This document shows positions 7,144 to 55,449 of a stretch of DNA of 64,000 bases, in pieces. Every line of letters begins with the position of its first letter. Position 1 is the stretch's first letter. Origin of the DNA: a bacterium. Lineage in GTDB: Bacteria > Arandabacterota > Arandabacteria > Arandabacterales > Arandabacteraceae. Where the stretch lies: positions 1,284-65,283 of the forward strand of contig JALGZP010000006.1 in NCBI GenBank assembly GCA_025774845.1. The letters are read 5' to 3'. Position numbers and translations under genes: made by a program. Under the pieces are notes generated by a model, which made no database searches, was not told where the DNA came from, and saw nothing but the letters and a program-made list of their open reading frames with translations.

Positions 7144-7200
7144 CAGTCCTTCCTTGCTGTGATACCCTCTCCAGCAGTCGCAAATCCAGGGGTGTAGCGG

Positions 7201-25594: not shown

Positions 25595-25597
25595 AAG

Positions 25598-26731: not shown

Positions 26732-26736
26732 GGATC

Positions 26737-27888: not shown

Positions 27889-27892
27889 AGGT

Positions 27893-30104: not shown

Positions 30105-30925
30105 CGAAATCCAAGCAGAAACTTGAAACACTCGAGTTCGGTACGTATGACGCCCGCTACAACATGGCGCTTGATCTCCACCTCTATACACTTTGCGAGA
30201 ACGGTTCGAACCGTGGTTTCCTGAGATTCTACACATGGTCCAGGCCCACGCTGTCGCTCGGTCATTTCGAGGACGAAGGTGTTATCGACATGGCCAGGGT
30301 ACTTGAGGACGGAGTCCAGGTGGTCAGGCGGCCGACCGGTGGGCGGGTGGTTCTTCATGGCGATGACCTGACCTATGCTGTCATTGTACCCGGAGGGGCC
30401 GGCCGGAGCATGCTTGAGACATACAGGATGATCTCGGAGTGCATAGTAAAAGGCTTGAACCGGTTGGGGATAGAGGCGGGGCTAGAACGGAGTACGGCGT
30501 GCAAGTCCGACGTCACACGGAAGCCCTGCTTCGTATCGACAAGCAGGTATGAGATTCTTCACGGGGGCAGGAAGGTGGCCGGCAGTGCTCAGAAGACAGG
30601 GGAGACCGCCGTTCTCCAGCACGGCAGCATACCCCTTGGCCCGGGTTACCTCGGGGTCGTCGACTACATGGCCTCTGGATATGGGGACCGGATGACGCTT
30701 CGCTCCGACATCGACGCTGCGACAACCTGCATTTATGACCTTCTCGGATCATGCCCTGCGCCCTCAGAGGTCGCGTCAGCACTGGCTCTCGGCTTCGCCG
30801 AGCGATTCGACCTTGTTGAGCGCGGAACTCACACCGATGTAATAGACAGGGAGATCATAGATGCCCCTCAGGGGCTCGAAAAGGGGGTTTCCTGGCCCTC
30901 TGGAGTGACAGACAAAAGCACTTGA
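30101..30925 (+). CDS. lipoate/octanoate-protein ligase family protein (BPL_LplA_LipB catalytic domain)
   Basis: FYTWSRPTLSLGHFED, VVRRPTGGRVVLHGDDLTYAVIVP and GGRKVAGSAQKTGETAVLQHGSIPL (catalytic Lys context) match LplA/LipB-type catalytic domains. TTG start. Confidence 0.75.
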   Translation: MTKSKQKLETLEFGTYDARYNMALDLHLYTLCENGSNRGFLRFYTWSRPTLSLGHFEDEGVIDMARVLEDGVQVVRRPTGGRVVLHGDDLTYAVIVPGGAGRSMLETYRMISECIVKGLNRLGIEAGLERSTACKSDVTRKPCFVSTSRYEILHGGRKVAGSAQKTGETAVLQHGSIPLGPGYLGVVDYMASGYGDRMTLRSDIDAATTCIYDLLGSCPAPSEVASALALGFAERFDLVERGTHTDVIDREIIDAPQGLEKGVSWPSGVTDKST

Positions 30926-30949
30926 CAGTAAGTCTTTGGTTTTTATATA
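30922..30949 (+). promoter_or_regulatory. candidate promoter TTGACA-16-TATATA upstream of receptor gene A
   Basis: TTGACA at 30922-30927 (overlapping the ligase stop) and TATATA at 30944-30949. Pattern match only. Confidence 0.4.
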
Positions 30950-30979
30950 GTAACCTCGGATGATGGCTTCTATACTAGG

Positions 30980-33721
30980 ATGATGTCGGCCCAACCCAAA
31001 AGGGGGATGGATACTATGCCTTCCTTGTCGAAAACCTCTGTAGCCGCCTTAGTAGTTCTACTGGCTCTCACCGCGTCTTTAGCCTCCGCCCAGGACACCG
31101 GAAGGATCTCCGGTATGGTAGTCGGCACCAAGGATGGTAAGCCTCTAGGGTTCGCGAACGTCCTCATAATCGGGACGGGTATAGGTACATTTGTTAAGGA
31201 CAACGGCCGGTTCGCACTCGAGAGCGTCCCGCCGGGAACCTATACTGTCAAGGTCATGATGATGGGTTTTGGATCCAAGACCCAGGAGAACGTGCTTGTC
31301 ACCGCCGGGCAGACGACCGAGCTTAAGTTCGAGCTGGCGGAGACCGTTGTTCTCGTCACCGACGTGGTTGAGATTACCGGTGACAGACCTATGGTTGATA
31401 CCGAGCGTACCCAGACCAAGCGGACTATTACGACCGAGGAGGTTGCGGTTAGGTCTATCAACACCGTTGAGGACGCTATTGCCGCACAGGCCGGAGTTGT
31501 GCTTGAACAGGGTGAGATTCACATCAGGGGCGGAAGATCGGGTGAGGTCAAGCAGTTCATCGACGGTATGCAGATCAGCGACCCGTTCGTGGGTCGTAAT
31601 ACGATGGAAGTAAGCCTGACGTCACTCTCCGAGATCGAGGTGCTCTCGGGTGGTTTCGATGCTGAGTACGGTAATGTCCAATCCGGTGTGATTAACCTGA
31701 AGACCAGGGAAGGCGGCACCAAGTACTCCGGCGTGATCAGATTCATGACGGATGATTATGGTGCACCCGACAAGACATATTTCAACTATGACAATGTCGC
31801 GGTCGGCTTCGGCGGACCGCTAATCACCACAGATCTGAGGTTCTTTGCATCCGCTGAGGCGGTATTCACCGATACGTATCTCAAGACCCTGGAGCCCAGA
31901 CAGCAGAAGGAGCTGTGGGGTTTCATCAAGTTCCGTGAGCGTCAGGCAAACAACTACTCGGGCCAGGGGAAGATGACGTACTTCTTCTCACCTACTAAGA
32001 AGATATCCAGTGAGATCCTGGCCTCAGGCGAAAAATACGATTTCTACAGTCACACGATGAGCAGGGTGGGGTACTGGTCGGATCTCTACAACCATTGGTG
32101 GTTTGAGCCATTGGATGAGACCTACAGTCTTTACCTTGGTCCGTCTCACACACCTGATATCACAAATAAGCACATGAGCACAAAACTGGTGTGGAACCAT
32201 ACACTGAGCCCCTCGGCGTTCTATACGATGAGGCTGGGTCGGTACACCACGCTTCACAAACTTGTTGTGCTTGACAAGGAGCCCTGGCAGTACCAGTGGG
32301 AGAGCCAGTTTGAGAGGCTCGATCCTGAGAACCGCTACTATATTGTAACGGGTGACTATCCCCACTGGCAGCGTTACCACACCACGATGTGGACCGGTAA
32401 AGGTGACATGACCATCCAGAAGTCCACGACACACCAGATCAAGTTTGGGGCCGAGAGTAACCTCTACAGGCTCGAGATGGAGGACTTGAGATGGCCCTCG
32501 CTGGATCAGCCGCTGGGTGTGTTCACCGATATATACAAGTTCAATTGCTGGGGGCTTTCGGCTTTCATGCAGGACAAGATAAAGTTCGAGGGTATGAACG
32601 TGAGGGTCGGGCTGAGGTTCGATCTCTTCGATCCGGGCAAGGATGCGGTCGAGGCATATTACAGATTCATCGGCTCTACGGGGCTGTCTACGGGTGAGTC
32701 CGGGTTCTTCAAACGGAGCGAGTGGCAGATAAGCCCGAGGCTGGGTGTGTCGTACCCCGTTTCTGAGAGGGATGCGCTTTACTTCAACTACGGCAGGTTC
32801 TACCAGATACCGAGACTCGAGGTTCTGTTCCAATTCCTGGGTCAGACAGAGACAGGACTTCTGGAGTTCGGCAATCCCCTGATGGAAGCAGAGACCACGA
32901 TCATGTACGAGGTCGGGATTCAGCACCAGTTCACGCAGACGATAGTGGGCGACATCGCCCTGTTCTATAAGGATATATTCGGTCTGACCGGTACACTGCC
33001 GGGTGATCTTACCGAGGACTCACCGTTCATACAGCAGTATGGTCCTACGTCGACCCCGGTAGTCTATACCAACCTTGACTACGGTTCGGTCAGGGGTATT
33101 GAGTTTAAGCTGACCAAGCGTTTCAGTAACCGTTTCAGCGGGAGTATGACCTATACCTTCTCGAAAGCAACCGGATCGAGTTCGAACGAGCTTCAGGGTT
33201 CGAACGTGGTGAGCGGCGGTATGGATCGTGCGCCGATTACCGAGCTCCCCCTTGACTGGGATCGGAATCATGTGATCGCGGCAAACCTCTACATCAGCGA
33301 GCCAGGTCTATGGGGCTGCAACGTGGACTGGAGTTACTCATCGGGAGCGCCCTACACGCCTATGATGCCGCGGGAGCGAGAGGTACGGGCGACTCTGATC
33401 AACACCGAGAGGTTGCCGGCGCGTAGCACGGTCAATGTAAAGGCTGACAAGCGTTACAAGATAGCCGGCCAGGAGATATCTCTGTTCCTGGAGGCCCGGA
33501 ACGTACTTGACAGGCAGAACATTTCAAATGTGAACCCCGCGGTTTGGCCGGGAGGCACTGGCAACTACGTATCCTATTACACCACTGAGAGTGAACTTGG
33601 CGGAGCCTATGACATGGGTGAGTTGCTGGGGCTTGCCGAGGTTGACTATCGAGCGCTGAACGATCCGCGGGTGTACGCATCACCCAGGAATGTCAGGGTC
33701 GGCGTATCGTTTGACTGGTAA
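30980..33721 (+). CDS. TonB-dependent-receptor-like outer membrane barrel with N-terminal carboxypeptidase-regulatory-like domain (cassette A)
   Basis: GRISGMVVGTKDGKPLGFANVLIIGT...PPGTYTVKVMMMGF (CarboxypepD_reg fold). Plug motifs IHIRGGRSGEVKQFIDGMQI and LSGGFDAEYGNVQSGVINLKT. A long beta-rich barrel ends VGVSFDW. The true start may be ATG 31007 or 31016 (signal peptide MPSLSKTSVAALVVLLALTASLASA). Confidence 0.85.
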   Translation: MMSAQPKRGMDTMPSLSKTSVAALVVLLALTASLASAQDTGRISGMVVGTKDGKPLGFANVLIIGTGIGTFVKDNGRFALESVPPGTYTVKVMMMGFGSKTQENVLVTAGQTTELKFELAETVVLVTDVVEITGDRPMVDTERTQTKRTITTEEVAVRSINTVEDAIAAQAGVVLEQGEIHIRGGRSGEVKQFIDGMQISDPFVGRNTMEVSLTSLSEIEVLSGGFDAEYGNVQSGVINLKTREGGTKYSGVIRFMTDDYGAPDKTYFNYDNVAVGFGGPLITTDLRFFASAEAVFTDTYLKTLEPRQQKELWGFIKFRERQANNYSGQGKMTYFFSPTKKISSEILASGEKYDFYSHTMSRVGYWSDLYNHWWFEPLDETYSLYLGPSHTPDITNKHMSTKLVWNHTLSPSAFYTMRLGRYTTLHKLVVLDKEPWQYQWESQFERLDPENRYYIVTGDYPHWQRYHTTMWTGKGDMTIQKSTTHQIKFGAESNLYRLEMEDLRWPSLDQPLGVFTDIYKFNCWGLSAFMQDKIKFEGMNVRVGLRFDLFDPGKDAVEAYYRFIGSTGLSTGESGFFKRSEWQISPRLGVSYPVSERDALYFNYGRFYQIPRLEVLFQFLGQTETGLLEFGNPLMEAETTIMYEVGIQHQFTQTIVGDIALFYKDIFGLTGTLPGDLTEDSPFIQQYGPTSTPVVYTNLDYGSVRGIEFKLTKRFSNRFSGSMTYTFSKATGSSSNELQGSNVVSGGMDRAPITELPLDWDRNHVIAANLYISEPGLWGCNVDWSYSSGAPYTPMMPREREVRATLINTERLPARSTVNVKADKRYKIAGQEISLFLEARNVLDRQNISNVNPAVWPGGTGNYVSYYTTESELGGAYDMGELLGLAEVDYRALNDPRVYASPRNVRVGVSFDW

Positions 33722-33743
33722 TCTCGAGACGGAGGACCTGACG

Positions 33744-35876
33744 ATGACAAGGACGAGATCAGCATTTTCCAGGGCCACCTGCATCTTGCTGTTGTTGCTG
33801 GCGGTTCAGCTGGTGGTGGTCACTTCAGCATCTGCGCGCTATGACGGGCCAATTCCCGAGCAGTATGCCGCTCCGGAGCAAGGTTTGGTGAAGTTTCTGG
33901 GTTGGTACCACAATGTGAACCAGTTACTTCTCCATGTCTGCAACATGGGTTTCTTCGGTGACTGGAATTCGGATCCCTCGGCTCCGTCCTGTGAGTGGCC
34001 GGGTGGAAGCGGTATCGAGTACCTCTATGCAGCAGGGCTGTGGGTAGGGGGTGTGAAGCTCGATGAATTCGGAAGACCGGACACGCTTGTATCCGCTGCA
34101 GTCTATCAGCAGGAGTTCTATCCGAAGCCCGATCCACGGGATGTGATCTACGAGGCCGCCGAAGGGCAGCAGGCGGGTGGCCGAAGGTGTGATGACGACG
34201 CCGACAATCTCAGGGATGAGGATTTCCTCGACGGCTGGGACAACGATGGCGACGGACTTATAGATGAGGACTTTTCTTCGATATCCCAGCAGATGTACAC
34301 ATGCGTTTACTATGACACAAGTACCAACATGAATGCGAACAGGTCTGAGGACTTTCATGTACCCCTCGACCTGATGGTCAGGCAAGGGAGCTATACCTGG
34401 ACCAGCCCCGCCGTGGAAGATTTCATCGGTGTCGAGTACAGTGTTACGAACATAGGCGATTCGACCATCTACTCGGCGTATGTCGCATTCATGATCGATG
34501 GTGACATCGGTCCTGTGAGACAGGTACCCCAGTCTTATACGGATGACATGGCCGCGTACATCGACACGGTGGTCACGCGGACGGAGCTGGATGCGGCCGG
34601 AAACGAACAGACCCAGGACTATCGCTTGACAGTTGGGTACATGTACGACGCCGAGGGCGGTGACGATGGTGATGTGGAAGGCTACATCGGGATCATGTTC
34701 CTTGGTCATACCACCGACGATACCGGTGAACTTGCTCCCCAGAGTGTAGAGATCCATATGTTCCGGAGCTGGTCAAGTGGTGAGCAGGACCCGCAGAACG
34801 ACAAGGAAAGATATAGATACATGAGGGGGAATTCAGATTTCGAGCAGACGATTGACCCTCCGACATCAAGACCGTCCGATTACCGGTTCCTGGTATCGGC
34901 GGGACCGTTTGCGGAGATCCGCCCCGGGAGTACACTGATCTTTCAGTGTGCTTTTGTGGCCGGGTTCCCGTTTGAAGATTTCATAGACAACGCCACGAAT
35001 GCACAGAGGGTGTATAACCTGAAGCCGATGATCAACTGCCACGGTGAGCAGATTGATGACAACTGGCTGGGTTCAAGCCCGCCTCCTCCACCGAAGCAGC
35101 GGGTGATGGCCGGGGACAGCAAGGTTATTCTCGAGTGGGATGACTATTCCGAGAGGACCCCGGATCCCCTTATGCAGATCTTCGATTTCGATGGTTACAG
35201 GATATGGCGAGCGGTAGGGTGGAGGCATGAGAGCGAGGTGCCGGCCGCTGAGCAGTGGGAGTTGATCGCGCACTTCGGCAAACAGGACTTGCCGACCATA
35301 GACACGGGTCTAATGGGAATCGGGAAGTACAGGTTTGTGGATGAGTTCGTCCATAACGGGCTTCCGTACTGGTATGCGGTCACCGCTTTTGACAATGGAA
35401 GCGCCGAGAGGATATACGACAGAGAGACGGACACGACCGATTCGATACCCAGATACGGGAGCTACGCTCAGGCCATGCAACTTGTGTATCCGCGTAGCAC
35501 GCCCTCGAGGACCACGGGCAAAGTGCAGATCGTTCCCAACCCGTATCCGTGGAATCCGAGCAATCCGGCGATCCCCGCGGATTTGAGGGAAACCCGGAAG
35601 GCGATCGGTGATTTGGCCGAGTATGACAGGGATCCTTCGGGGCGACGCGTTACGTTCGTAAACCTGCCGAGACAGTCGATGGTAAGGGTATACAGTCTGG
35701 GGGGTGACCTGGTCTGGAGCCGCTACTTCGAAGGGCCTGTGGACCCGTTCACCGGTGCCCCGCCGCAGTGGAACCTGGTTTCCAGGAATGATCAGGAAAT
35801 AGTCAGTGGCATATACATAGTGCATATAGAGTCGCCGGTGGGTAGTCAGACAACCAAGTTCATAGTGGTGAGATAG
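33744..35876 (+). CDS. secreted protein with acidic Ca-binding-like motif, FN3-like region and T9SS-type/FlgD-Ig-like C-terminal domain (cassette A)
   Basis: ATG at 33744 follows GGAGGA. Signal peptide MTRTRSAFSRATCILLLLLAVQLVVVTSASA. Contains DGWDNDGDGLIDEDF. The C-terminal VTFVNLPRQSMVRVYSLGGDLV...VSGIYIVHIESPVGSQTTKFIVVR resembles T9SS CTDs. Homologous to 53540-55426. Confidence 0.75.
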   Translation: MTRTRSAFSRATCILLLLLAVQLVVVTSASARYDGPIPEQYAAPEQGLVKFLGWYHNVNQLLLHVCNMGFFGDWNSDPSAPSCEWPGGSGIEYLYAAGLWVGGVKLDEFGRPDTLVSAAVYQQEFYPKPDPRDVIYEAAEGQQAGGRRCDDDADNLRDEDFLDGWDNDGDGLIDEDFSSISQQMYTCVYYDTSTNMNANRSEDFHVPLDLMVRQGSYTWTSPAVEDFIGVEYSVTNIGDSTIYSAYVAFMIDGDIGPVRQVPQSYTDDMAAYIDTVVTRTELDAAGNEQTQDYRLTVGYMYDAEGGDDGDVEGYIGIMFLGHTTDDTGELAPQSVEIHMFRSWSSGEQDPQNDKERYRYMRGNSDFEQTIDPPTSRPSDYRFLVSAGPFAEIRPGSTLIFQCAFVAGFPFEDFIDNATNAQRVYNLKPMINCHGEQIDDNWLGSSPPPPPKQRVMAGDSKVILEWDDYSERTPDPLMQIFDFDGYRIWRAVGWRHESEVPAAEQWELIAHFGKQDLPTIDTGLMGIGKYRFVDEFVHNGLPYWYAVTAFDNGSAERIYDRETDTTDSIPRYGSYAQAMQLVYPRSTPSRTTGKVQIVPNPYPWNPSNPAIPADLRETRKAIGDLAEYDRDPSGRRVTFVNLPRQSMVRVYSLGGDLVWSRYFEGPVDPFTGAPPQWNLVSRNDQEIVSGIYIVHIESPVGSQTTKFIVVR

Positions 35877-35911
35877 ACAATTTCCATATAGCATGGAAGG
35901 AGGAAGTTAAA

Positions 35912-36889
35912 TTGAGAGGAACTCTGTCGATTGCGGTTGCGGTGATTCTGCTCCTGACGGTGTCATGCTGGTCCGGGGAGATGTTTGAGAAAGTCGGGAC
36001 GGTCGGGGCGCAATTCCTCAAGATAGGCGCGGGTGCCCGTGGAGTGGGGATGGGCGAGGCGTTTGTGGCCCTTGACGGAGATGCTACCTGCATTTACTGG
36101 AATCCCGCAGGTGTGGCCACTATCGAAGGTAGCCAGTTCACCCTCAACCATTCAACGTGGCCTGCCGAACTCAGCCACGAGTTTGCTGCCTATGTCTTTT
36201 CCTACAAGTTCATTCCCGGCGTTCTCGGTGTCAGCGCCACGGTTCTCCAGATGGATCCGATGCCCGAGACGACGGAGTACAGGCAGGGTGGGACGGGGTA
36301 TTCCTTTGATGCCGGAAGCATGGCATTTGGACTCACCTATGCCAGGATGCTGACGGATCGATTCTCATTCGGTTTAACCGTCAAGTGGGTTCACGAGGGT
36401 CTTGCGGATTTCAGCGGTGAGACGGTCGCGCTGGATCTTGGAACGATCTACAATACGGGGTTCCGTGATATCAAGATCGGGATGGCCTTTGTGAACATGG
36501 GTTCAGGGTATACCCTGATTGAAAACGGCAAGGAAAGCCCGATGCCCGTGATGTTCAAAGTTGGTGGAGCGATGCCCCTGATGAACACAACTGATCACCG
36601 GGTGCTGGGCGCGCTTGAGTTCAATCATCCACCCGATGGGGCGGAGAGGCTCAACGCCGGTGGGGAGTATATCTACCAGAAGTATGCTCCCAACTTCGAA
36701 GTGGCTCTGAGGGGTGGTTACAGGTTTAACAGGGACGAGGAAAGCCTCACCGCCGGATTCGGCATAAGGTTCCCGTTCGTCAGGATAGGCCTGATCAACA
36801 AGGCATCGATCTGGAGCATCGACTACGCTTACTCCGAGATGGGGCTTCTTGAGAGTTCCCACAAGATCTCATTGAGCGCACAATACTAG
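35912..36889 (+). CDS. PorV/PorQ-like (UPF0164-type) outer membrane beta-barrel (cassette A)
   Basis: TTG start follows AAGGAGGA. GAQFLKIGAGARGVGMGEAFVALDGDATCIYWNPAGVA is the family's N-terminal signature. The protein is beta-strand rich and ends in ...SLSAQY. Confidence 0.7.
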   Translation: MRGTLSIAVAVILLLTVSCWSGEMFEKVGTVGAQFLKIGAGARGVGMGEAFVALDGDATCIYWNPAGVATIEGSQFTLNHSTWPAELSHEFAAYVFSYKFIPGVLGVSATVLQMDPMPETTEYRQGGTGYSFDAGSMAFGLTYARMLTDRFSFGLTVKWVHEGLADFSGETVALDLGTIYNTGFRDIKIGMAFVNMGSGYTLIENGKESPMPVMFKVGGAMPLMNTTDHRVLGALEFNHPPDGAERLNAGGEYIYQKYAPNFEVALRGGYRFNRDEESLTAGFGIRFPFVRIGLINKASIWSIDYAYSEMGLLESSHKISLSAQY

Positions 36890-36893
36890 GTTT

Positions 36894-38474
36894 ATGAAAA
36901 AGACACTGATCAAGCGAGGGGTGGCACTTAAAATGCTGCCCCTCATAGTCTTTGGGGCTGTGTACGTGTGTGGCGTGACGGCCTCGCAGGCATGGGTGGA
37001 ATACGCGGATGTGCCTGAATCCAGTCATGGAGATATCGTCTTCTACGTGGACGTTGTTACCTTTTACGGGGGTGACGGCGAGAACATAGAGGAGATTTAC
37101 TGTGTCGTACCGAACGACCAGGTCACGTTCATCGAAGAGGACGGTACATACCGGGGGAAACTGAGATTCAAGACCCGTATTCTTGACGGCGAAGGTGATG
37201 TGGTCGGGAAGTCCGAGAACACCATCGAGGTCGGAGCTGCTTCCCCGGATGATGCGGTCGACAGAAGTGTCGTCCAGGTTCTTCAGTCCGAGGTCAGGGT
37301 GCCTCCCGGCAGGTATACGGCCGAGGTGACGCTCGAAGACCTGAACAAAGTCCAGAAGACATTGATTTCCTTCTTCCTCAAGCGATATATGAAGGGCGAG
37401 ACCGAAGTCGAGATAGAGTCCGGTGAATTCGAGCAGAGCAAGCTTGCGATCAGCGACATCGAATTCGCCCGGAGTCTCAGAAGGACCTCCGAGGGGGCGT
37501 TCCAGAAATCGGGTTTCGAGGTGATCCCGAACGCCCAGCGCCGCTATGGTCTGCTCCTCACCGAATTGCCGGTCTTTTTCGAGATCTACGATTTCAGGGA
37601 AGGCGTGAGCAGCGATAGCGTTGTGGCATCATACTCCATTCTGAACAAGACGGGCGACGAGATATTTACGAGCGAAAACACAATTGCCATGCAGGGCCGC
37701 ACATTCGGCAGCACGGCTCTCTTTGATATTCTCTCCCTGACTGCAGGGAGCTATCTTCTTTCCCTGAGAATATCGGACAGGGATGGGAACTCCCTTGCCC
37801 GGTCCGAGCGCAGGTTCGACGTTGTCTGGTCGCCGCTGTCCTGGGGAAGGTACGAGTCGGAAACGATCGGAGACATGGAGTTCGTTCTGACCGAGGATGA
37901 GATGAAGGACTTCAAGGTCCTGTCCACGGGGGAACGCGAGCAGTTCATGAGGGAGTTCTGGCTGGGCATCGACCCTACTCCGGGAACCGCAGAGAATGAG
38001 GCTCTGGAGGAGCATTACCGGCGTGTGGGATTCGCCGACCGCAGTTACGGTGGTTCCACACAGCGAGGGGCTCTGAGCGATCGAGGGAGGCTCTACGTCA
38101 AGTACGGACCTCCGGACGATATCGAGAGTCACTACTCCGACTTCGAGTTCGTGCAAGGAACGAGGCACATGGAAGGCGGGGGGAGTCCTGTGCCCACGGA
38201 TCCGTTTTCACGTGTGGGGCTCAAGGCCGGCACGGGTGGTTCAGGGAGCTGGGACCGGTCGGGTTCGGCCGCCGAAGCCCATTCCGACCAGAGGGGGGGA
38301 AGTACGGTACACGGGAAGGGGTATGAGATCTGGTCGTATGACGGTGCCGGGCACCCGATCAGAAGGCTGTCGAAACGCACTGCAACGTCGGCAAGAATGC
38401 AGTTTATTCTGGTGGATGAGAGGGGTTTTGGGGACTACAGATTGATCTACAGTACCGAGAAACATGAATACTAA
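36894..38474 (+). CDS. GWxTD-domain family protein (variant motif GALSD)
   Basis: FWLGIDPTPGTAENEALEEHYRRV, GALSDRGRLYVKYGPPDDIE and FILVDERGFGDYRLIYS align with the [20 protein letters not shown] protein at 46689-47954. Starts 4 nt after the PorV-like gene. Confidence 0.7.
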   Translation: MKKTLIKRGVALKMLPLIVFGAVYVCGVTASQAWVEYADVPESSHGDIVFYVDVVTFYGGDGENIEEIYCVVPNDQVTFIEEDGTYRGKLRFKTRILDGEGDVVGKSENTIEVGAASPDDAVDRSVVQVLQSEVRVPPGRYTAEVTLEDLNKVQKTLISFFLKRYMKGETEVEIESGEFEQSKLAISDIEFARSLRRTSEGAFQKSGFEVIPNAQRRYGLLLTELPVFFEIYDFREGVSSDSVVASYSILNKTGDEIFTSENTIAMQGRTFGSTALFDILSLTAGSYLLSLRISDRDGNSLARSERRFDVVWSPLSWGRYESETIGDMEFVLTEDEMKDFKVLSTGEREQFMREFWLGIDPTPGTAENEALEEHYRRVGFADRSYGGSTQRGALSDRGRLYVKYGPPDDIESHYSDFEFVQGTRHMEGGGSPVPTDPFSRVGLKAGTGGSGSWDRSGSAAEAHSDQRGGSTVHGKGYEIWSYDGAGHPIRRLSKRTATSARMQFILVDERGFGDYRLIYSTEKHEY

Positions 38475-38482: not shown

Positions 38483-38511
38483 TTGACAACATTTTAGGCT
38501 GGTATTAGAGT
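38483..38511 (+). promoter_or_regulatory. candidate promoter TTGACA-17-TAGAGT upstream of exbB
   Basis: TTGACA at 38483-38488 and TAGAGT at 38506-38511, about 90 nt before the exbB ATG. Pattern match only. Confidence 0.4.
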
Positions 38512-39445: not shown

Positions 39446-39460
39446 GGAAGGTGAACCGAA

Positions 39461-39865: not shown

Positions 39866-39880
39866 TAGGCAGGGAGTACG

Positions 39881-40300: not shown

Positions 40301-40312
40301 GAGTTTGCCAAG

Positions 40313-40924: not shown

Positions 40925-41064
40925 CGTCGCCCGGTGCTTTCCCTCTGATCAGCCGATGTCGGTGGGTAGAGCTTTAAGGCCGGCCTCAAGCAGTCCTTGT
41001 AGGTTTTCCCATCGCATGGTATATGTGGGTATCGAACAAGATCTGAATGGCAAGGGGGTACGGC

Positions 41065-41754
41065 ATGAAGAGAATCAGCAACCTCGGTCTGGTTTTTACC
41101 AGTCCCAGTGCTCTGGCCAGAAACATCGCCGAGGACCCGCACTGGCTCATCCCGCTGATATTAGTCCTGGCGGTCAGTTTCGTCGCGGCGTTTTCAACCC
41201 ACAAGCAGGCGTTGGAGTTTCAGCGGGCCTGGACGGAGGACATCCTTAAGCGCAGTGGCGCGACCGACGAGGAGATCGACGAGAGGTTCACCACTTCGCT
41301 GAGCAGCAGACTGACGGCTGGCGCCGGCTCGGCAGTGGGGTTCGGTATCATCCTGGTGATCGCAGCCGCCCTGTACAAGGGGATTGCTTCCATTCTCGGG
41401 GGTAAAATCGGGTTCCGCAAGATGTTCGCCCTTCAGTGCCATGCGGCCCTGATTGTGGTAGCCGGGCTGCTGGTGAAAGTGCCGTTGATACTGGCCAAGA
41501 ACAGCATAGATGTCAGAACGGGCATCGCCGCCCTTGCCCCGGGTGTCCCTCTCAGGTCACCACTTGGGACATTATTGAATCAGCTGGATCTGTTTGGAGT
41601 CTGGAGCCTCGTTGCCCTTTGCTTTGGCTTCAGCGTGCTTACAGGTCTGAGTATAAAGAAGTCCGCCGGGGCTGTTTTTGCACTGTGGGCCGTATTCGTA
41701 GTCCTGATGGTGGGTCTGGCGGTTCTCGGTTCAAAGTTCATGGGCGGAGCGTAG
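41065..41754 (+). CDS. Yip1-domain membrane protein
   Basis: ATG at 41065 follows AAGGGGG. Five hydrophobic helices follow a soluble N-terminus (FTSPSALARNIAEDPHW), an architecture typical of the Yip1/DUF1282 family. The ORF track starts at 41047. Confidence 0.6.
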   Translation: MKRISNLGLVFTSPSALARNIAEDPHWLIPLILVLAVSFVAAFSTHKQALEFQRAWTEDILKRSGATDEEIDERFTTSLSSRLTAGAGSAVGFGIILVIAAALYKGIASILGGKIGFRKMFALQCHAALIVVAGLLVKVPLILAKNSIDVRTGIAALAPGVPLRSPLGTLLNQLDLFGVWSLVALCFGFSVLTGLSIKKSAGAVFALWAVFVVLMVGLAVLGSKFMGGA

Positions 41755-41768
41755 GAAGGAGGATGTAA

Positions 41769-43067
41769 ATGAGATTCGGATCAAAGTCGCTTCTTGTAGT
41801 GATCGCGACGCTGTTTGTGAGTTTGACTGCCCCCGGGGCGAGGGCGGATGATCCACCCCTGAGACTGGATCTCGACAGGTGTGTCGAGATGGCGCTCGAG
41901 GTCAATGTATCCGTTCTCCGGGCGGGTTACGATCTGGACGTAGCGAGGAACTCCGTTATCACATCGGCATCCACGGTTCTTCCGACTGTCGGCATCTCGG
42001 CCAGTCGCTCGACCTCACCTGCCGTCGGTGGGGTGATAATCTCGCCGACCTCAACGCGAAGCTATACTACTTCGCTTTACTTCCGGGAACTGGTTACCGT
42101 GGGTGGTGTGATCGGTGTGTTCGAGTCACTGTCCAGCAAACGCGTGAGCGACCATAATCTCCGGCAGGTCCGGCAGGGCGTCTCATACGATGCCAAACAG
42201 AAGTACCTCGAGGTGCTCAAGTCTGAAAGATTGATGGCGGTGCGCAGAGAAGCTCTCGATCTGAGCCAGCGCCGGCTTGATAAAGCACAGGCACTCGTTG
42301 ACGTCGGCTCTGCTGTTAAGTCTGATGTACTGAGAGCCCAGGTTGAGGTCAGCAGGAACGAGCTGGAGCTGATATCGGCTACGAACGCATTGAGACTTGC
42401 CGAGACCGATCTCAGACACTTTCTTGCCATAAGTGATGAGGTCGACCTCGAGCTGGAGGACATACTTGAGACCAAAGAAGTTGATTACCCGCTTGAGTAT
42501 GCGCTTGCTGAAGCAATGGGTAAGAGACCGGACATAGGTATGGGTACCGAAGCGCTCGGTGCGGCAAGGGCTGCGGTCTGGAGAGAGCGAAGTGGCTGGC
42601 TCCCATACGTGTCGATTGAAGGCGACTACCGGTGGTTTGACGTAGAGTCCCCGGATGGGCTGAGTGATGTCTGGGATGATTCCGACTGGTACTGGACGGT
42701 CTATGGAGCTGTTGATATCTTTGACGGTCTTGAGACTTTCAGCCAGGTGAGAAGCGCCAAGGCCTCTAGGAAGTCCGCCGAGCAGAATCTTTTCCAGGTG
42801 AAGCGGGACGCGGCACTCGAGATCAAGCGGGCCTTCTATAATCTCGAGGAAGCCCGTCAGCGGGTCAAGATCAGCAGGGAGACCGTCGGGCTTGCGGAGG
42901 AGGAACTGAGACTTGCCGAGGAGAGGTTCAGACTGGGTGGAGCTACCATGCTCGAACAGATCGATTCACAGGTGGCCCTTAGCGAAGCACGGACATCATA
43001 CGTTGAAGCCCTCTATGACTATCTGCTTTCCCAGGCCGAACTGGTGAGAGCCATGGGAAAGGACTGA
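41769..43067 (+). CDS. TolC-family outer membrane efflux protein
   Basis: Signal peptide, then two repeated coiled-coil/beta halves with typical TolC phrases (LDRCVEMALEVNVSVLRAGYDLDVARN; RPDIGMGTEALGAARAAVWRERSGWLPYVSIEGDY). Confidence 0.85.
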   Translation: MRFGSKSLLVVIATLFVSLTAPGARADDPPLRLDLDRCVEMALEVNVSVLRAGYDLDVARNSVITSASTVLPTVGISASRSTSPAVGGVIISPTSTRSYTTSLYFRELVTVGGVIGVFESLSSKRVSDHNLRQVRQGVSYDAKQKYLEVLKSERLMAVRREALDLSQRRLDKAQALVDVGSAVKSDVLRAQVEVSRNELELISATNALRLAETDLRHFLAISDEVDLELEDILETKEVDYPLEYALAEAMGKRPDIGMGTEALGAARAAVWRERSGWLPYVSIEGDYRWFDVESPDGLSDVWDDSDWYWTVYGAVDIFDGLETFSQVRSAKASRKSAEQNLFQVKRDAALEIKRAFYNLEEARQRVKISRETVGLAEEELRLAEERFRLGGATMLEQIDSQVALSEARTSYVEALYDYLLSQAELVRAMGKD

Positions 43068-43074
43068 TCGTAAG

Positions 43075-44271
43075 ATGAAGAGCAAGAAGCGCCTGATGCT
43101 GATAGGGGTTGCGGTTGCTATAGTCGTGGTTGTGATAATCAACGTGAAACTTTCCTACGAGTCCTCCACCGAGGTCGAGGTCGAAGTGATGGGGAAGGGA
43201 GGCATTATCGAGAAGGTGTCGGGACCGGGAGTCGTACACGCGGAATCCTCGGTGAAGATCAGTTCGTCTGTGATGGGCAGGATAACCAGGCTTCCCGTCA
43301 AAGAGGGTGACCTAATAGAGGAAGGCAGTGTTCTGCTTAAGATCGAGGCCTCCCAGTACAGGGCGAGGCTCAATCAGGCTCAGGCGGCCCACAGGGCGGC
43401 CCTGGCCCGGTTGGAACTGGCCTGGGCGGAATCACTGGATGCACGTGCCGAAAGCGACCGGAAGCGCCGCCTGGCGAAGAACGACCTGGTCTCGGAAAGA
43501 GATCTTGAAGTAGCCAGGACGACTCTCGCGGTGGCGAGGGCAGGCGTTGAGGCTGCTGCGGAGGTCGCGAGGGAAGCTTCGGCATCGCTCGAGGCGGCCC
43601 GCGACAATCTTGAAAAGACGGTGATCACTGCGCCCATTTCCGGGACCGTAACCAGTTTGAATGTGGAGGAAGGTGAGATAGCGATCACGGGTACCATGAA
43701 CAACCCCGGTACCGTGCTTATGACAATCAGTGACCTTGACACGATGGAGGTCAGGGCCGAGATAGACGAGACCGATGTCGCCGGGGTGAATCCCGGCCAG
43801 CCGGTCGAAGTATCCGTGGATGCGTTTCCGGATACGGTACTGACCGGGACAGTCTCCGTGATCGGTAGCTCCTCAAGCGCGGCCAGGTCGGTTGCCTACC
43901 GGGCTGATGAGCGTTCGACCTTCGAGGTGAGAATAAGGATCGAAGACCGCCTGCCGGGCCTGAGACCCGGTATGACCACCACGGTTGATATCGTTACGGC
44001 GACCCGGGACAGTGTCGCAAGTGTGCCCCTTCAGGCGCTGGTCTTAAGAGAGGTCGGTGAGGGGGATGAGAAATCCGAACGCGAAGGTATCTTTGTTGTC
44101 AGGGATGGACGGTCGAGGTTTACGCCTGTCCGGACCGGGATCTCGGATGACAAGAACATAGAAGTTCTTCGGGAGCTCCCGGAGGATACCCGTGTTGTGG
44201 TCGGCCCGTTTAAGGCCTTGAGGGATCTGGAGGATAGTGTCAAGGTGAAGATAACCGAAGAGCGCGAATGA
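43075..44271 (+). CDS. HlyD/MacA-type periplasmic adaptor (membrane fusion protein)
   Basis: N-terminal anchor, lipoyl-like hairpin (VMGRITRLPVKEGDLIEEGSVLLKIE ... ITAPISGTVTSLNVEEGE) flanking a coiled coil, then a beta-barrel and membrane-proximal domain. Confidence 0.85.
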   Translation: MKSKKRLMLIGVAVAIVVVVIINVKLSYESSTEVEVEVMGKGGIIEKVSGPGVVHAESSVKISSSVMGRITRLPVKEGDLIEEGSVLLKIEASQYRARLNQAQAAHRAALARLELAWAESLDARAESDRKRRLAKNDLVSERDLEVARTTLAVARAGVEAAAEVAREASASLEAARDNLEKTVITAPISGTVTSLNVEEGEIAITGTMNNPGTVLMTISDLDTMEVRAEIDETDVAGVNPGQPVEVSVDAFPDTVLTGTVSVIGSSSSAARSVAYRADERSTFEVRIRIEDRLPGLRPGMTTTVDIVTATRDSVASVPLQALVLREVGEGDEKSEREGIFVVRDGRSRFTPVRTGISDDKNIEVLRELPEDTRVVVGPFKALRDLEDSVKVKITEERE

Positions 44272-45488
44272 CCTTCCTTGATCTTGTTCAGATATCCGCC
44301 ACTGCTCTCCTCAGACACAAGATACGCTCCGTCCTGACTCTTCTGGGCATTGTCATAGGTATTGTCTCGGTTGCCGCGGTTATGTCGGTGGTCCGCGGCA
44401 TCGATACGTATGTTGCGGAGCTCCTGGGGAGCATCGGTTCCCAGGGATTCGTTATCAGCAAACTGGGGATGCCGGGTAGTGAGGAAGAGTATCTCAAAGC
44501 CCTGAGGAGAAAGCCGATCCCGCCCTCAGCCGCGGAGACGATCAAGAAGGAATGCCCGTCGGTTTCACATGCTGCGCCTTTTGCTGGTACCTCCTCTGAT
44601 GTTAAACACCACAGGCAGAACGCGGAAGACGTCCGGATAGAAGGGACGACAGGTGATGCGCAATACATGACCGAGATCGGTCTCGAGGACGGCAGGTATT
44701 TCACCCCGTATGAGGTACAGCATGCCAGGTCGGTTTGCATCGTCGGCGCCGACATCGCCGAGAAGGTGTTTCCGGGCCGCGATCCGATCGGCAAGTACCT
44801 CTACATCAAAGGGCACAGATTCACCGTCATCGGCTCGCACGCAAAGATGGGGACGGTGCTGGGGATGTCACAGGACTCGTTTGTCCGGATCCCTTTCACC
44901 GCTTTCGAGAGGGTGTTCGGACGAGGTCACAGGACCAACATATCGGTTCGAAGCAAGAGCCCTGAATCAGTCAGGGATGCCATCAGGGAAGCCCGTGGGG
45001 TGATGAGAAGAATCAGGAAGCTCCGTGTGCGTGATGACGATGATTTCGGGATCCTGACCTCGGAAGCATTGATGGAAATATGGAGAAGGATCTCGGCAAG
45101 CATATTCCTTGCAAGCATAGGTGTCGGTAGTATTTCACTCCTCGTGGGTGGGATTGGAATCATGAACATAATGTTCGTTTCCGTCAAGGAAAGGACCAAT
45201 GAGATCGGCATCAGAAAGGCGACGGGTGCGACACGCAGGCAGATCATGGCCCAGTTCCTGACCGAGTCTGCCCTGCTGTGCCTGATAGGCGGGTCGATAG
45301 GTGTAGGTATCGGCGTAGGCGGATCCAAGATCCTGTCCTGGAAGACCAACGTGCCGGTGTCGGCGGAGTGGTGGTCCATCGGACTGCCGCTTGCCGTGGC
45401 GATTGCGGTCGGCCTCTTCTTCGGCGTGTATCCGGCCGTCAAGGCCGCATCGCTTGATCCGGTCGATGCCCTGAGGTACAACCAATGA
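44268..45488 (+). CDS. MacB/LolC-type ABC transporter permease (MacB_PCD + FtsX), no ATPase domain
   Basis: LRHKIRSVLTLLGIVIGIVSV N-terminus, a periplasmic domain and the FtsX motif NIMFVSVKERTNEIGIRKATGATRRQI. The start overlaps the adaptor stop. Confidence 0.85.
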   Translation: MTFLDLVQISATALLRHKIRSVLTLLGIVIGIVSVAAVMSVVRGIDTYVAELLGSIGSQGFVISKLGMPGSEEEYLKALRRKPIPPSAAETIKKECPSVSHAAPFAGTSSDVKHHRQNAEDVRIEGTTGDAQYMTEIGLEDGRYFTPYEVQHARSVCIVGADIAEKVFPGRDPIGKYLYIKGHRFTVIGSHAKMGTVLGMSQDSFVRIPFTAFERVFGRGHRTNISVRSKSPESVRDAIREARGVMRRIRKLRVRDDDDFGILTSEALMEIWRRISASIFLASIGVGSISLLVGGIGIMNIMFVSVKERTNEIGIRKATGATRRQIMAQFLTESALLCLIGGSIGVGIGVGGSKILSWKTNVPVSAEWWSIGLPLAVAIAVGLFFGVYPAVKAASLDPVDALRYNQ

Positions 45489-46696
45489 GATGGCTGACTG
45501 AGACCGTGCGAATTGCGCTTATGTCGCTCAAGGCCAATAAACTCCGGACGGTTCTGACCGTCATCGGTGTGATCATCGGAATAGGTACGATCATCGGTAT
45601 GCTGTCCCTGATAAACGGTATCAACGAGTCGGTGATGGAAGAGTTCAGACGGCTGGGTCCTGATGTCATGTACGTCACAAGAGAAGAACCGGGACTTCAG
45701 GTCGGTCCAAGCCGGAGAGACACAAAGGAGATCCTCTTAAGCGAGGTGCAGGAGCTGGGACGACGCTGCGAGTCTATCGATGAGATCTCGCTCATCGCGG
45801 ACAGGAGGGCCACCGTGGGTTACAGGGGGCGGCGGAGCGGCATGATGACCATCAGAGGCGTACTCGCCGACTACGGGGAGATAGGCAAGATCGTGATAAA
45901 ACAGGGGCGGTTCTTTAACCCCGCCGAAGGCCGGCGCTCAAGGGTGTGTGTCCTTGGCAGCGGGGTCGTGGAGGCGCTGTTCGGGAAAGTTTCTCCGCTT
46001 GACAAGCGCGTCGACATCGAGGGCAGGTCGTTCCGGGTGATCGGGACACTGGAGGAAACCGGTACGGTGTTCGGTGAGAGCAGCGATGATATGGTCATGC
46101 TTTCCTACACGTGGTGCAGGAGACTCTTCGGAGAGAGCAGGGACGACTATGCCATGGCGCTTCCTGCCGGCGGAACCGGTGTTGATGATGCTGTGGATGA
46201 TATCAGGATCACGCTCAGGGGTATTCGTAAGTTGACTCCGGGGCAGGAGGATGACTTCGCTGTATCGACCCAGGAATCCCTGCTGGACACTTATAAGCAG
46301 TTGACAGGCACGATTTACTGGGTTATGAGAATAGTAGCTTCAATCGCACTGCTTGTCAGCGGTGTCGGTATCATGAACATAATGTTCGTTGTCGTGATGG
46401 AGAGGACAAGGGAGATAGGGTTGCGGAAGGCCGTCGGAGCCCCGAGAATAGCGATCGCGGGTCAGTTTCTGGTCGAGGCGGTGGTTCTAACGTTGCTCGG
46501 GGGTCTGATCGGTATTGCTCTGGGTTTTCTTATCAGCATCACCGTTTCTGCCCTGACGCCTCTTCCTGCAACGGTCCCGTTCTGGGCGGTGCCGGTCTCG
46601 TTGGGAATCTGCTGTGCAGTTGGTATCTTTTTCGGATCCTACCCGGCCATGAGAGCTTCCGGGCTGGATCCGGTCAGGGCCCTTCGATATGAATAG
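45485..46696 (+). CDS. MacB/LolC-type ABC transporter permease, second copy
   Basis: LKANKLRTVLTVIGVIIGIGTI and NIMFVVVMERTREIGLRKAVGAPRIAI. ATGA overlap with the preceding permease. Confidence 0.85.
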   Translation: MRWLTETVRIALMSLKANKLRTVLTVIGVIIGIGTIIGMLSLINGINESVMEEFRRLGPDVMYVTREEPGLQVGPSRRDTKEILLSEVQELGRRCESIDEISLIADRRATVGYRGRRSGMMTIRGVLADYGEIGKIVIKQGRFFNPAEGRRSRVCVLGSGVVEALFGKVSPLDKRVDIEGRSFRVIGTLEETGTVFGESSDDMVMLSYTWCRRLFGESRDDYAMALPAGGTGVDDAVDDIRITLRGIRKLTPGQEDDFAVSTQESLLDTYKQLTGTIYWVMRIVASIALLVSGVGIMNIMFVVVMERTREIGLRKAVGAPRIAIAGQFLVEAVVLTLLGGLIGIALGFLISITVSALTPLPATVPFWAVPVSLGICCAVGIFFGSYPAMRASGLDPVRALRYE

Positions 46697-47954
46697 GACC
46701 ATACTGAATGTGGCGGCCGTTTTTGCCCTGCTGGGCGTGTATCTGGTACCTGCCCCCGCCACGGGAGCCGAGTTCGGTGTGCTTCCGGCCTGTTCACACT
46801 GGGCGCCCTATTTCTGTGCCGACGCAGGGTATTTCCTTGTCGGTGACACATATCAGCTTGAAGTCTACTTCCGGGTCTGTAACGAGGGCCTCCAGTTCGT
46901 CAGGGAAAACGATGGTTACACGGCGCGGGCAGACGTCGCGATCGTGGTTGAGGATGACAAGAACCGCCAGGTGACCGGTGACACCTACCGTATCAGGCTC
47001 AAGGCAGAGAAGTATGCGGAGACGACTTCGGTCGATTCATGCAAGACCCGATCCGTATCCTTCAAGGCACGGCCGGGAGATTTTGAAATGGTTGTGACGG
47101 TACGGGATGGGGATTCGGGGAGGAAGAGCAGGGTTGCGGCGGCCATTAAGGTACCTTCACTCGACAGGCGTCCCACGCTGAGCGATGTATGTCTCTTGCA
47201 CCGGGATGAAGCCAAGAGAGGTGGTAAGTGGGAGGGGTTCAGACCCAACGTCGTCAGGATCTACGATGCCACTACAGGAGACATCGCTTTCTACTATGAG
47301 GTATATCACAGTGACGGTGAAGATACCGTGACCGTCGTTCAGGAAGTCTTTGAGATGAGTGGGGCAAGGGCCTATCGGTTATCGAGTGCCATCGTGGGCA
47401 AAGGCATGACCGTGCATTTCGGAAACCTGTCGTTGGATTCGCTTTCAAATGGGCGCCATATGCTCACCGTATCGATCGCAGGGGCGGACGGCAAGCCTGT
47501 TGTCTCGCGGTCAAAGGAGTTTGAGGTCAGGACCACAAGCTTCTACTTCGGGAAGGACGCTGAAGAGGCGGCGCAGATACTGACTTACATCGCCACCAGC
47601 AGCATGATAGAGCGGTTTCTCGAGGCCGGTGAGGAAGAGAGGAAGCGGATATGGGAGCAGTTCTGGAGAGAAAAGGACCCCACGCCCCGAACACCTAAGA
47701 ATGAGTTCTATGATGAGCACATGAGACGTTTCAGATATGCCAACGAGCACTTCCCTACGTCCCTTACCGAGGGTTGGAGGACCGACAGGGGGAAGGTCTA
47801 CATCATGTACGGTGAGCCTGATGAGATCGAGGAATACCCCCTGGAGATAGGGAGAAATCCCACAGAGGTGTGGCACTATATCAGCAAAGGGAGGCGCTTC
47901 GTCTTTGTGGATGAGACGGGTTTCGGAGACTATGTTCTCATCCCCGGACGGTAG
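46689..47954 (+). CDS. GWxTD-domain protein
   Basis: Signal peptide, FWREKDPTPRTPKNEFYDEHMRRF, GWRTDRGKVYIMYGEPDEIE and FVFVDETGFGDYVLIPGR. Overlaps the permease stop by 8 nt. Confidence 0.75.
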   Translation: MNRTILNVAAVFALLGVYLVPAPATGAEFGVLPACSHWAPYFCADAGYFLVGDTYQLEVYFRVCNEGLQFVRENDGYTARADVAIVVEDDKNRQVTGDTYRIRLKAEKYAETTSVDSCKTRSVSFKARPGDFEMVVTVRDGDSGRKSRVAAAIKVPSLDRRPTLSDVCLLHRDEAKRGGKWEGFRPNVVRIYDATTGDIAFYYEVYHSDGEDTVTVVQEVFEMSGARAYRLSSAIVGKGMTVHFGNLSLDSLSNGRHMLTVSIAGADGKPVVSRSKEFEVRTTSFYFGKDAEEAAQILTYIATSSMIERFLEAGEEERKRIWEQFWREKDPTPRTPKNEFYDEHMRRFRYANEHFPTSLTEGWRTDRGKVYIMYGEPDEIEEYPLEIGRNPTEVWHYISKGRRFVFVDETGFGDYVLIPGR

Positions 47955-53524: not shown

Positions 53525-53539
53525 GATTGGAGGACTGAA

Positions 53540-55426: not shown

Positions 55427-55449
55427 TCGGTTCGGAGGAGGCCTTGATC

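Follow-up and report, generated by a model that had tools for sequence, protein, structure and literature searches.

A stretch of 64,000 nucleotides from bacterial contig JALGZP010000006.1, referred to here as the window, carries on its plus strand two copies of a gene set encoding a TonB-dependent transporter (TBDT), a secreted 'middle' protein (MID) that ends in a C-terminal domain (CTD) resembling those of type IX secretion systems (T9SS), and an outer-membrane barrel of the PorV/PorQ family. In the first copy (cassette A, positions 30980-38474) these genes are followed by one for a GWxTD-family protein and, as had been stated in a preliminary description of the same DNA, the four genes are tightly spaced, with gaps of 22, 35 and 4 nucleotides; their open reading frames (ORFs) and domain assignments were confirmed. 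The recurrence of the first three genes at 50915-56436 (cassette B), claimed in the same description, was also borne out, and in this second copy the MID and barrel genes overlap by 4 nucleotides. The three genes have been copied, and have diverged, as a unit, and they may together constitute a TonB-powered import system in which a capture protein is held at the cell surface by its own barrel. The genes of the two cassettes are as follows.

Cassette A
30980..33721, + strand: TBDT_A, 913 amino acids (aa); signal peptide, carboxypeptidase-regulatory-like N-terminal extension, TonB-box-like motif DVVEITG, plug and 22-strand-type barrel
33744..35876, + strand: MID_A, 710 aa; secreted all-beta protein with signal peptide, beta-sandwich N-domain of ~400 aa, Fn3 domain and T9SS type-A-like CTD
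35912..36889, + strand: PORV_A, 325 aa; PorV/PorQ-family (FadL-like) outer-membrane barrel
36894..38474, + strand: GWxTD1, 526 aa (513 aa from 36933, according to gene callers); secreted protein with a GWxTD domain

Cassette B
50915..53524, + strand: TBDT_B, 869 aa; paralogue of TBDT_A, 29% identity, full length
53540..55426, + strand: MID_B, 628 aa; distantly paralogous to MID_A (E 2e-18; 23% identity across ~550 aa), its CTD being of the same type
55423..56436, + strand: PORV_B, 337 aa; paralogue of PORV_A (33% identity), PorV/PorQ family

Conservation and duplication of the module

Loci encoding relatives of the middle proteins were fetched with a MID profile (76 loci, one genome per species), and their ORFs were labeled using the window's own proteins. 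The order TBDT, MID, PorV-like barrel was found in 46 of the 54 loci with enough flanking DNA, in Eisenbacteria, in metagenome-assembled genomes (MAGs) labeled 'Gemmatimonadota', and in Krumholzibacteriota; the remaining eight comprised six orphan MID copies and two partial loci. Such a frequency greatly exceeds what chance would produce. Gene order in other genomes had been named beforehand as a point on which the idea of a functional unit might founder, and that order proved to be conserved. At the fourth position, 26 of the 46 scorable loci carry a GWxTD gene and 17 carry a second barrel gene, the latter in one Eisenbacteria clade (for example, L017-L023, L028 and L031) where the barrel stands in place of GWxTD. 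The only one of these second barrels to be scanned (L017, 13254-14270) scored 134.6 bits against the PorV/PorQ family model NF033709 and had no Pfam match.

All three proteins of cassette B are full-length paralogues of their counterparts in cassette A, and cassette B is itself retained in relatives at 63-69% identity. At locus L081, which encodes a relative of MID_B at 34% identity, the flanking genes score higher against the cassette B proteins than against those of cassette A (113 bits to TBDT_B versus 31 to TBDT_A, and 214 bits to PORV_B versus 134 to PORV_A). A third, divergent module, consisting of a TBDT, a 936-aa MID, a PorV-family barrel and a GWxTD protein, has genes of glycolysis as its neighbors in a different complete genome (L083) and lacks exbBD-tonB genes, bringing to three the unrelated genomic sites at which the module was found. 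Each type of MID travels with its own type of TBDT and barrel. Because all three proteins are paralogous, because the partners at L081 are matched in type, and because a further copy exists at L083, the unit has evidently been copied whole and has diverged in step, which is the strongest argument that its genes work together. The earlier proposal of a modular unit is therefore upheld by the conserved order, by copying of the whole, and by the constancy of the pairings.

The six orphan copies (L037, L043, L046, L050, L051 and L052) possess the same CTD and have no TBDT or barrel gene adjoining; that of L043, at ~3.99 Mb in OZ244210.1, is surrounded by genes for FG-GAP/ASPIC, TPR, GH113 and OmpA-like proteins. 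In two genomes an orphan and a full cassette were both retrieved (L043 and L032 in OZ244210.1; L051 and L026 in JAWKKG01). The pairing of MID with a TBDT and a barrel is thus frequent, and not obligatory.

The preliminary description had used Bacteroidota as its frame of reference, which does not agree with the distribution of the homologues. MID homologues bear the source labels Candidatus Eisenbacteria/Eiseniibacteriota, plain 'bacterium', or Gemmatimonadota (MAGs), the nearest genome contig (93% identity) belongs to a Candidatus Eisenbacteria MAG, and two more distant loci belong to Krumholzibacteriota, all of which indicates that the host belongs to Candidatus Eisenbacteria, within the FCB group and outside Bacteroidota. 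In relatives, the cassette A locus adjoins lplA or gcv/uvrA, a position that is fixed in most of the genomes sampled.

The transporters and the PorV/PorQ-family barrels

Both TBDTs exceed the cut-offs of the Pfam models for the plug (PF07715; 33.9 bits for TBDT_A and 24.6 for TBDT_B, cut-off 23.9) and for the barrel (TonB_dep_Rec_b-barrel, PF00593; 101 and 124 bits, cut-off 27), and both display partial OMP_b-brl_4 matches besides matches to CarboxypepD_reg, the latter scoring 63 bits in TBDT_A, above its cut-off. A TonB-box-like motif, (E/D)(V/I)VV(E/T)(A/G), called by eye on an alignment, separates the plug from the N-terminal extension in TBDT_A, in TBDT_B and in most of the 14 orthologues and paralogues examined. 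Among the named receptor families of NCBIfam, TBDT_A gave only sub-threshold matches, and the closest solved structure to it is that of Bacteroides XusA (9gbc_A), for which only the N-terminal part was aligned. Membership in the SusC/RagA family was considered and rejected, since TIGR04056 matches TBDT_B alone, at its N-terminus only, with 58 bits versus a cut-off of 368. Pfam detected no SusD-like domain in the gene 3' of the TBDT, and the module contains no SusD-like gene.

The designation of the smaller barrels as PorV-like, made in the preliminary description, agrees with two curated family models whose thresholds both proteins pass: NF033709 (183.3 bits for PORV_A and 190.6 for PORV_B, cut-off 90) and PF19572 (33.3 and 27.9 bits, cut-off 27). 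The cut-off of NF033709 is also passed by the barrels of L017 (two barrels), L081 and L083, and an N-terminal motif of PORV_A aligns to Flavobacterium johnsoniae PorV (6h3i_F, E 1.5e-5). Orthology to PorV (NF033710), PorQ (NF033711) or PorV2 (NF052325) was rejected, the best scores of the two barrels being 73, 99 and 69 bits versus cut-offs of 250, 220 and 325, respectively (for PORV_A, 73, 82 and 69 bits). Scores to PorQ (82 or 99 bits) are slightly higher than those to PorV (73 or 56 bits), and all of them lie so far under the equivalog cut-offs that the barrels are to be regarded as members of the family, not as orthologues. A primary assignment to FadL/TodX was also rejected (Toluene_X, 16.8 bits versus a threshold of 29.7), the barrels displaying weak matches to that family and to the UPF0164 Pfam family.

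The middle proteins

An alternative ATG at 33690 would extend MID_A to 728 aa and cause its gene to overlap that of TBDT_A; the database cluster and the gene callers use the 710-aa form. Residues 10-25 of that form constitute a hydrophobic N-terminal helix followed by ASA-type sites, MID_B is similar, and by this inspection both proteins are predicted to carry a Sec signal peptide. An AlphaFold model of MID_A, built on 42 homologues (pLDDT 77.8, pTM 0.72), comprises the signal-peptide helix, the N-domain (~50-440), a PPPPP linker, an Fn3 domain (~450-570) and a C-terminal beta-sandwich (~595-710). Within the N-domain, residues 150-176 form two acidic loops of the DxDxDG type (DDDADN...DNDGDGLIDED) that are invariant in all 42 aligned homologues, correspond to a low-confidence region of the model, and are absent from the shorter MID_B; by their motif they resemble calcium sites of the EF-hand or dockerin type, and they are probably calcium sites.

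No Pfam family matched full-length MID_A, and a profile search against the PDB returned a single match, to a designed protein with the same acidic repeat (E 0.91). The preliminary description had suggested that the N-terminal region be searched for hydrolase or binding folds; a Foldseek search returned only a weak likeness to the beta-supersandwich found at the N-terminus of enzymes of families GH116, GH94 and GH65 (E ~5e-6, TM ~0.2), as well as to Fn3 arrays. An enzymatic identity for MID was rejected, no catalytic domain having been found via Pfam, NCBIfam, the PDB profile search or Foldseek, and this absence of a recognizable catalytic domain would agree with a role in binding.

Homologues of MID_B numbered 50 retrieved sequences, and relatives of the N-domain numbered 1342 at E <=1e-3 and 491 at E <=1e-10, counted as cluster representatives at 50% identity. 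Since so many relatives exist and no Pfam domain describes them, the N-domain defines a large, undescribed domain family. Among ten of its distant members (800-1200 aa), Pfam found only occasional FlgD_ig or Por_Secre_tail tails and one mis-fused ABC fragment. A further distant member, of 919 aa (L084, 3064-5838 in GCA_003704855.1), is preceded by a 924-aa protein that is not a TBDT and that has no Pfam match on record; the C-terminus of the latter is PorZ-type-CTD-like (25 bits), and this locus therefore encodes two CTD proteins in tandem with no barrel adjoining.

The C-terminal tails

The tail of MID_A scored 18 bits against TIGR04183 when the full-length protein was scanned and 23.6 bits when its last 115 aa were scanned alone (cut-off 23), and it scored 14.4 bits against the Pfam model Por_Secre_tail (PF18962, cut-off 27). 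When the terminal 115 aa of 12 members of the family, including MID_B, were scanned, TIGR04183 was matched by all 12 tails (best E 1.8e-5), the PorZ model's C-terminal segment by 11 (best E 1.3e-8) and that of the PorU model by 10 (best E 8.2e-6), while Por_Secre_tail was matched below its threshold by nine and the type-B model CHU_C weakly by six. The tails thus give better E-values to the CTD segments of PorZ and PorU than to the generic CTD model, and full-length MID_B likewise displays weak C-terminal matches to the PorZ and PorU models. A comparison with T9SS models had been suggested as a check on the CTD assignment; its outcome is clear for two relatives that pass the TIGR04183 cut-off, those of L083 (29.6 bits) and of the orphan locus L043 (29.1 bits), and marginal for the MID_A copy itself. 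NCBI lists one orthologue of MID_A under the name 'T9SS type A sorting domain-containing protein'.

An alignment of the tails displays the motifs VVPNPY, NLP and SGIY, and a final strand with the pattern G(K/R)FxVI(R/K). A single conserved and functionally important lysine has been described in type-A CTDs (PMC10994853), and we infer from the alignment that the Lys/Arg of the last strand may occupy its position. Other protein families in these bacteria also bear T9SS-type CTDs, for example GWxTD proteins with PF18962, and the literature searched contained no report of a T9SS in Eisenbacteria.

Genomic neighborhood and possible substrates

Directly 3' of GWxTD1 lie the genes of an inner-membrane energizing complex (38603-40924), followed by a further block of envelope genes and, immediately 5' of cassette B, by a set of three genes.

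38603-39445, + strand: exbB (Pfam MotA_ExbB)
39461-39865, + strand: first exbD (Pfam ExbD)
39881-40300, + strand: second exbD (Pfam ExbD)
40313-40924, + strand: tonB (Pfam TonB_C)
41047..47954, + strand: downstream block encoding a Yip1-domain protein, a TolC-like outer-membrane efflux protein (OEP), an HlyD-type adaptor, two MacB/FtsX-type permeases and GWxTD2
46689..47954, + strand: GWxTD2, directly 3' of the OEP, HlyD-type adaptor and two MacB-type permease genes
47970..50777, + strand: block directly 5' of cassette B encoding an NlpC/P60+SH3 endopeptidase, a DUF1611 protein and an MR/MLE-type (dipeptide epimerase-like) enzyme

The exbB-exbD-exbD-tonB genes are found 3' of the cassette in most loci whose downstream sequence extends far enough, a result with which gene-call tables carrying Pfam matches agree; sometimes, as in L017, they follow intervening genes, in that case unrelated minus-strand genes lying between the second barrel and exbB. 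The downstream block recurs in L001, L005-L007, L013, L015, L080 and L082. The three genes of the 47970-50777 set also precede TBDT_B in L080 and L082, being a constant forerunner of cassette B in relatives, and they resemble genes for the recycling of murein peptides, comparable to the ykfABC genes of Bacillus. Genes of an Opp-type peptide importer lie within 10 kb of the cassette in 21 of the 76 loci, nine of which have a full OppABCDF set. Together, the Opp genes of one clade and the 47970-50777 set offer a weak hint of a peptide or cell-wall peptide as the substrate. No lipid-metabolism genes were found near the cassettes in the window.

Both GWxTD proteins pass the cut-offs of TIGR04514 (82.4 bits for GWxTD1 and 112 for GWxTD2, cut-off 28) and PF20094 (32.7 and 58.4 bits, cut-off 26.9). 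In a model of GWxTD1 (pLDDT 80.7), two Ig/Fn3-like sandwiches precede a helical/beta GWxTD domain in which residues 404-460 form a disordered insert; Foldseek matched only the tandem sandwiches, to RbmA and to the C-terminal domains of transglutaminase, and found no solved fold for the GWxTD domain itself. The literature searched made no mention of GWxTD. The pairing of a GWxTD gene with OEP, HlyD and MacB genes was also found in L001, L013, L080 and L082, and such proteins therefore accompany two kinds of outer-membrane machine, standing beside the TBDT triad in one case and beside the OEP-HlyD-MacB set in the other.

A proposed system for capture and import

The module is read here, tentatively and with a rough probability of 0.45, as a TonB-powered import system with a surface capture protein that is held by its cognate PorV/PorQ-like barrel. 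In such a system, MID would be exported by Sec and, guided by its CTD, would then traverse the outer membrane along a T9SS-type route. That domain would be retained and would dock in the extracellular loops of the cognate barrel, in the manner of PorZ on PorQ or of PorU on PorV, and once docked would hold the ectodomain (beta-sandwich and Fn3) next to the TBDT or above it. The ectodomain would capture a ligand and pass it to the TBDT, the adjacent ExbB-ExbD-TonB complex would power its import, and the GWxTD protein would serve as an envelope accessory. The individual parts belong to known families (TBDT, PorV/PorQ, T9SS-type CTD and GWxTD), and the principle of one barrel for each CTD protein is already known; the physical complex and the SusCD-like function are what we infer.

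Several observations weigh against this reading. The CTD of MID_A barely reaches the cut-off of TIGR04183 and lies below the Pfam threshold, the N-domain yielded only a weak fold match (TM ~0.2), and the barrels, judged by their equivalog scores, are not orthologues of PorV or PorQ. As the six orphan loci suggest, MID can exist without a dedicated TBDT and barrel as neighbors. The hint regarding the substrate represents guilt by association, with Opp genes near the cassette in only 21 of the 76 loci. The core genes of the T9SS (SprA/Sov, PorKLMN and PorU) were not found within the 64-kb window, to which the scan was confined, and fragments of the locus were found in two marine-sediment DNA runs and in no RNA run.

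Alternative explanations

The genes might instead be co-located and have separate functions, MID being a T9SS cargo of the usual kind (an adhesin, say, or a surface-coat protein), the barrel a general shuttle or attachment part, and the TBDT an unrelated importer that merely shares an operon beside the tonB locus. The orphan MID copies, with an identical type of CTD and neither neighbor, are in keeping with this explanation, as are the size of the N-domain family (1342 clusters), with its varied lengths and contexts, and the conserved, housekeeping-like site by lplA or gcv/uvrA that cassette A occupies. It is nevertheless unlikely, because all three genes were copied jointly and have diverged in parallel, because they are found in the same order at three unrelated sites with gaps of 4-35 nucleotides or a 4-nucleotide overlap, and because a general shuttle would not be expected to occur once per type of cargo.

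More doubtful is a structural role, in which MID would form a calcium-stabilized surface layer or adhesion coat tethered by the PorV-like barrels, with the TBDT and GWxTD proteins as partners in anchoring or assembly. The TonB-box-like motif and plug that the TBDT retains would be needless in a passive anchor, neither repeats nor features of self-assembly were observed, and the existence of paralogous modules with divergent N-domains is better explained by diversification of substrates. What such a role would account for is the invariance of the DxDxDG-type loops (which suggest a calcium-dependent structure), the all-beta composition of MID, with its Fn3 domain and no enzymatic fold, the resemblance of the N-terminal sandwiches of GWxTD1 to the biofilm scaffold RbmA, and the near-universal presence of cassette A at a fixed locus in most of the genomes sampled.

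About equally improbable is a system for TonB-powered export and anchoring, a minimal analogue of type IX secretion in which the TBDT-like barrel would export the CTD protein and the PorV-like barrel would receive and hold it. The TBDT Oar of Myxococcus reportedly moves the protease PopC out across the outer membrane, and the CarboxypepD_reg and partial OMP_b-brl_4 matches of the window's TBDTs are typical of Oar-like receptors; the presence of exbBD-tonB directly 3' in most loci, the lack of any T9SS core gene within the window, and the silence of the literature searched on a T9SS in Eisenbacteria all point in the same direction. However, the orphan MIDs keep their CTD where no TBDT adjoins, which argues for a general export route encoded elsewhere in the genome; T9SS-type CTDs also occur on other families such as GWxTD proteins, cassette B and L083 lack exbBD-tonB genes of their own, and the TBDTs have the ordinary plug and TonB box of an importer. 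Were Eisenbacteria to lack SprA and PorKLMN, the module itself could constitute a minimal secretion-and-anchoring system, with an ExbB-ExbD-TonB-driven TBDT-type barrel exporting MID and handing it to the PorV-like barrel, a possibility that we rate slightly lower still. The ExbBD motor is a relative of the PorLM/GldLM motor, and an export module of this kind, if real, would stand as a living analogue of type IX secretion, or as its forerunner in evolution, and would add a second TonB-dependent exporter.

A FadL-type lateral-gate channel, in which the barrel would pass a hydrophobic compound, MID and the TBDT would serve lipid or hydrophobic uptake, and the CTD would be cleaved as usual, is very improbable, since the FadL-like nature of the PorV/PorQ family and the weak Toluene_X (FadL/TodX) and UPF0164 matches are outweighed by scores of 183-190 bits to the PorV/PorQ family model versus 16.8 bits (threshold 29.7) to FadL/TodX, and by the lack of lipid-metabolism genes nearby.

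Relation to known systems

The proposed import system with its barrel-held capture protein has partial counterparts in several well-studied envelope systems. In polysaccharide utilization loci, such as the chitin locus of Flavobacterium johnsoniae, T9SS-secreted enzymes are encoded beside SusC/D, so that a T9SS cargo and a TBDT again share one locus; their cargo, in contrast, is a released enzyme for which no dedicated PorV-like barrel is known, whereas no catalytic domain was found in MID.

The comparison with SusC/D drawn in the preliminary description holds in part. The TBDTs lie outside SusC/RagA and no SusD-like gene accompanies them; the TonB-box-like motif and the exbB-exbD-exbD-tonB genes do fit a TonB-powered machine. 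The module resembles SusC/SusD, RagA/RagB, BtuB/BtuG and XusA/XusB in that a TBDT with a carboxypeptidase-regulatory-like extension is encoded beside a non-enzymatic surface protein, but the partners in those systems are lipoproteins (SusD-like, beta-propeller or of other folds), whereas the partner in the module bears a CTD of the T9SS type and is provided with a barrel of its own. In Bacteroides, for example, the XusA TBDT works with the non-enzymatic surface lipoprotein XusB (10.1101/2024.04.15.589501).

The provision of a barrel for each cargo, which the preliminary description had regarded as not normal for PorV next to a TBDT, is not without precedent, since PorZ-PorQ, PorU-PorV, and pairs of a type-B CTD protein with a PorP/SprF-like barrel are all known (PMC10202324, PMC9143113). 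The CTDs of PorZ and PorU are uncleaved and stay bound to PorQ and PorV, respectively (PMC10202324). These two pairs, like the module, combine a surface protein bearing a type-A-like CTD with a barrel of the PorV/PorQ family; the tails of the module score better to the CTD segments of PorZ and PorU, and its barrels are slightly nearer to PorQ. Unlike them, MID has neither the beta-propellers of PorZ nor the C25 peptidase of PorU, the module's barrels fall below the equivalog cut-offs, its CTD would be retained only by our reading, and genes for a TBDT and a GWxTD protein accompany the pair, in Eisenbacteria. In the SprB-SprF arrangement, a type-B CTD cargo and an adjacent PorP/SprF-like barrel are provided one to one and serve surface anchorage (PMC9143113). 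Cargo and cognate barrel are encoded side by side there as well, but the barrels are of the PorP/SprF and not the PorV/PorQ kind, the CTD is of type B whereas all 12 module tails match TIGR04183 (and only six match CHU_C, weakly), and the known pairs include no TBDT.

A further precedent is architectural. In the BAM complex of Bacteroides, the FadL-like 14-strand barrel BamG bridges BamA and the surface protein BamH (PMC12578637), demonstrating that a barrel of the FadL/PorV type can pack on a large barrel and at the same time grip a surface protein by its extracellular loops. The function of that complex is barrel assembly, however, and the module has neither BamA nor BamD.

The literature searched described no TBDT encoded with a CTD-bearing partner plus that partner's own PorV-like barrel. 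If the proposed reading is correct, the module would represent a second, independent way of placing a capture protein beside a TonB-dependent importer, a task for which Bacteroidota use surface lipoproteins (SusD, RagB, BtuG and XusB); the bacteria described here, also of the FCB group, would lock a type IX-style tail into a dedicated PorV-like barrel, which would replace the lipid anchor. The principle by which a cognate barrel keeps a CTD would then extend from housekeeping parts of the T9SS (PorZ-PorQ and PorU-PorV) to nutrient acquisition. A first functional context would also be provided for the GWxTD domain and for the ~400-aa N-domain (1342 or more clusters at 50% identity and no Pfam model), as well as a way into the physiology of a sediment phylum that has not been cultured.

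Transcription signals and other features of the window

The two best sigma-70-like promoter matches between positions 30000 and 42000 fall exactly in the two intergenic gaps that precede TBDT_A and exbB.

30922..30951, + strand: promoter-like match of sigma-70 type (TTGACA, 18-nucleotide spacer, TATAGT; 11/12), in the 54-nucleotide gap 5' of TBDT_A
38483..38511, + strand: promoter-like match of sigma-70 type (10/12), in the 128-nucleotide gap 5' of exbB

Scans for promoters and terminators gave no more matches than were found in shuffled sequence, and it is therefore the placement of these two matches alone that is suggestive; that placement is only suggestive of two transcription units.

Just 5' of lplA and cassette A, the region 23753-30104 contains a series of tightly packed plus-strand genes that looks like a conserved operon. 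The first encodes a MutL-like protein (PF13941, 423 bits; an ATPase with an actin fold, of the MutL type associated with glutamate mutase), and the others comprise a 377-aa ORF without a family, a DUF6754 protein (377 bits), and three ORFs (219, 282 and 249 aa) that neither Pfam nor NCBIfam matched. Just 5' of uvrA, a 1162-aa TPR protein (12313-15801) has a C-terminal part that is YbgF/CpoB-like (TIGR02795, 127 bits); its identification as PorW/SprE was rejected (30 bits versus a cut-off of 250) in favor of a generic TPR/YbgF-like protein. At 6034-8270, a 369-aa protein with a small-GTPase domain of the Arf-like/double-GTPase kind is followed by an overlapping gene for a 376-aa TPR protein, a pairing that is unusual in a bacterium.

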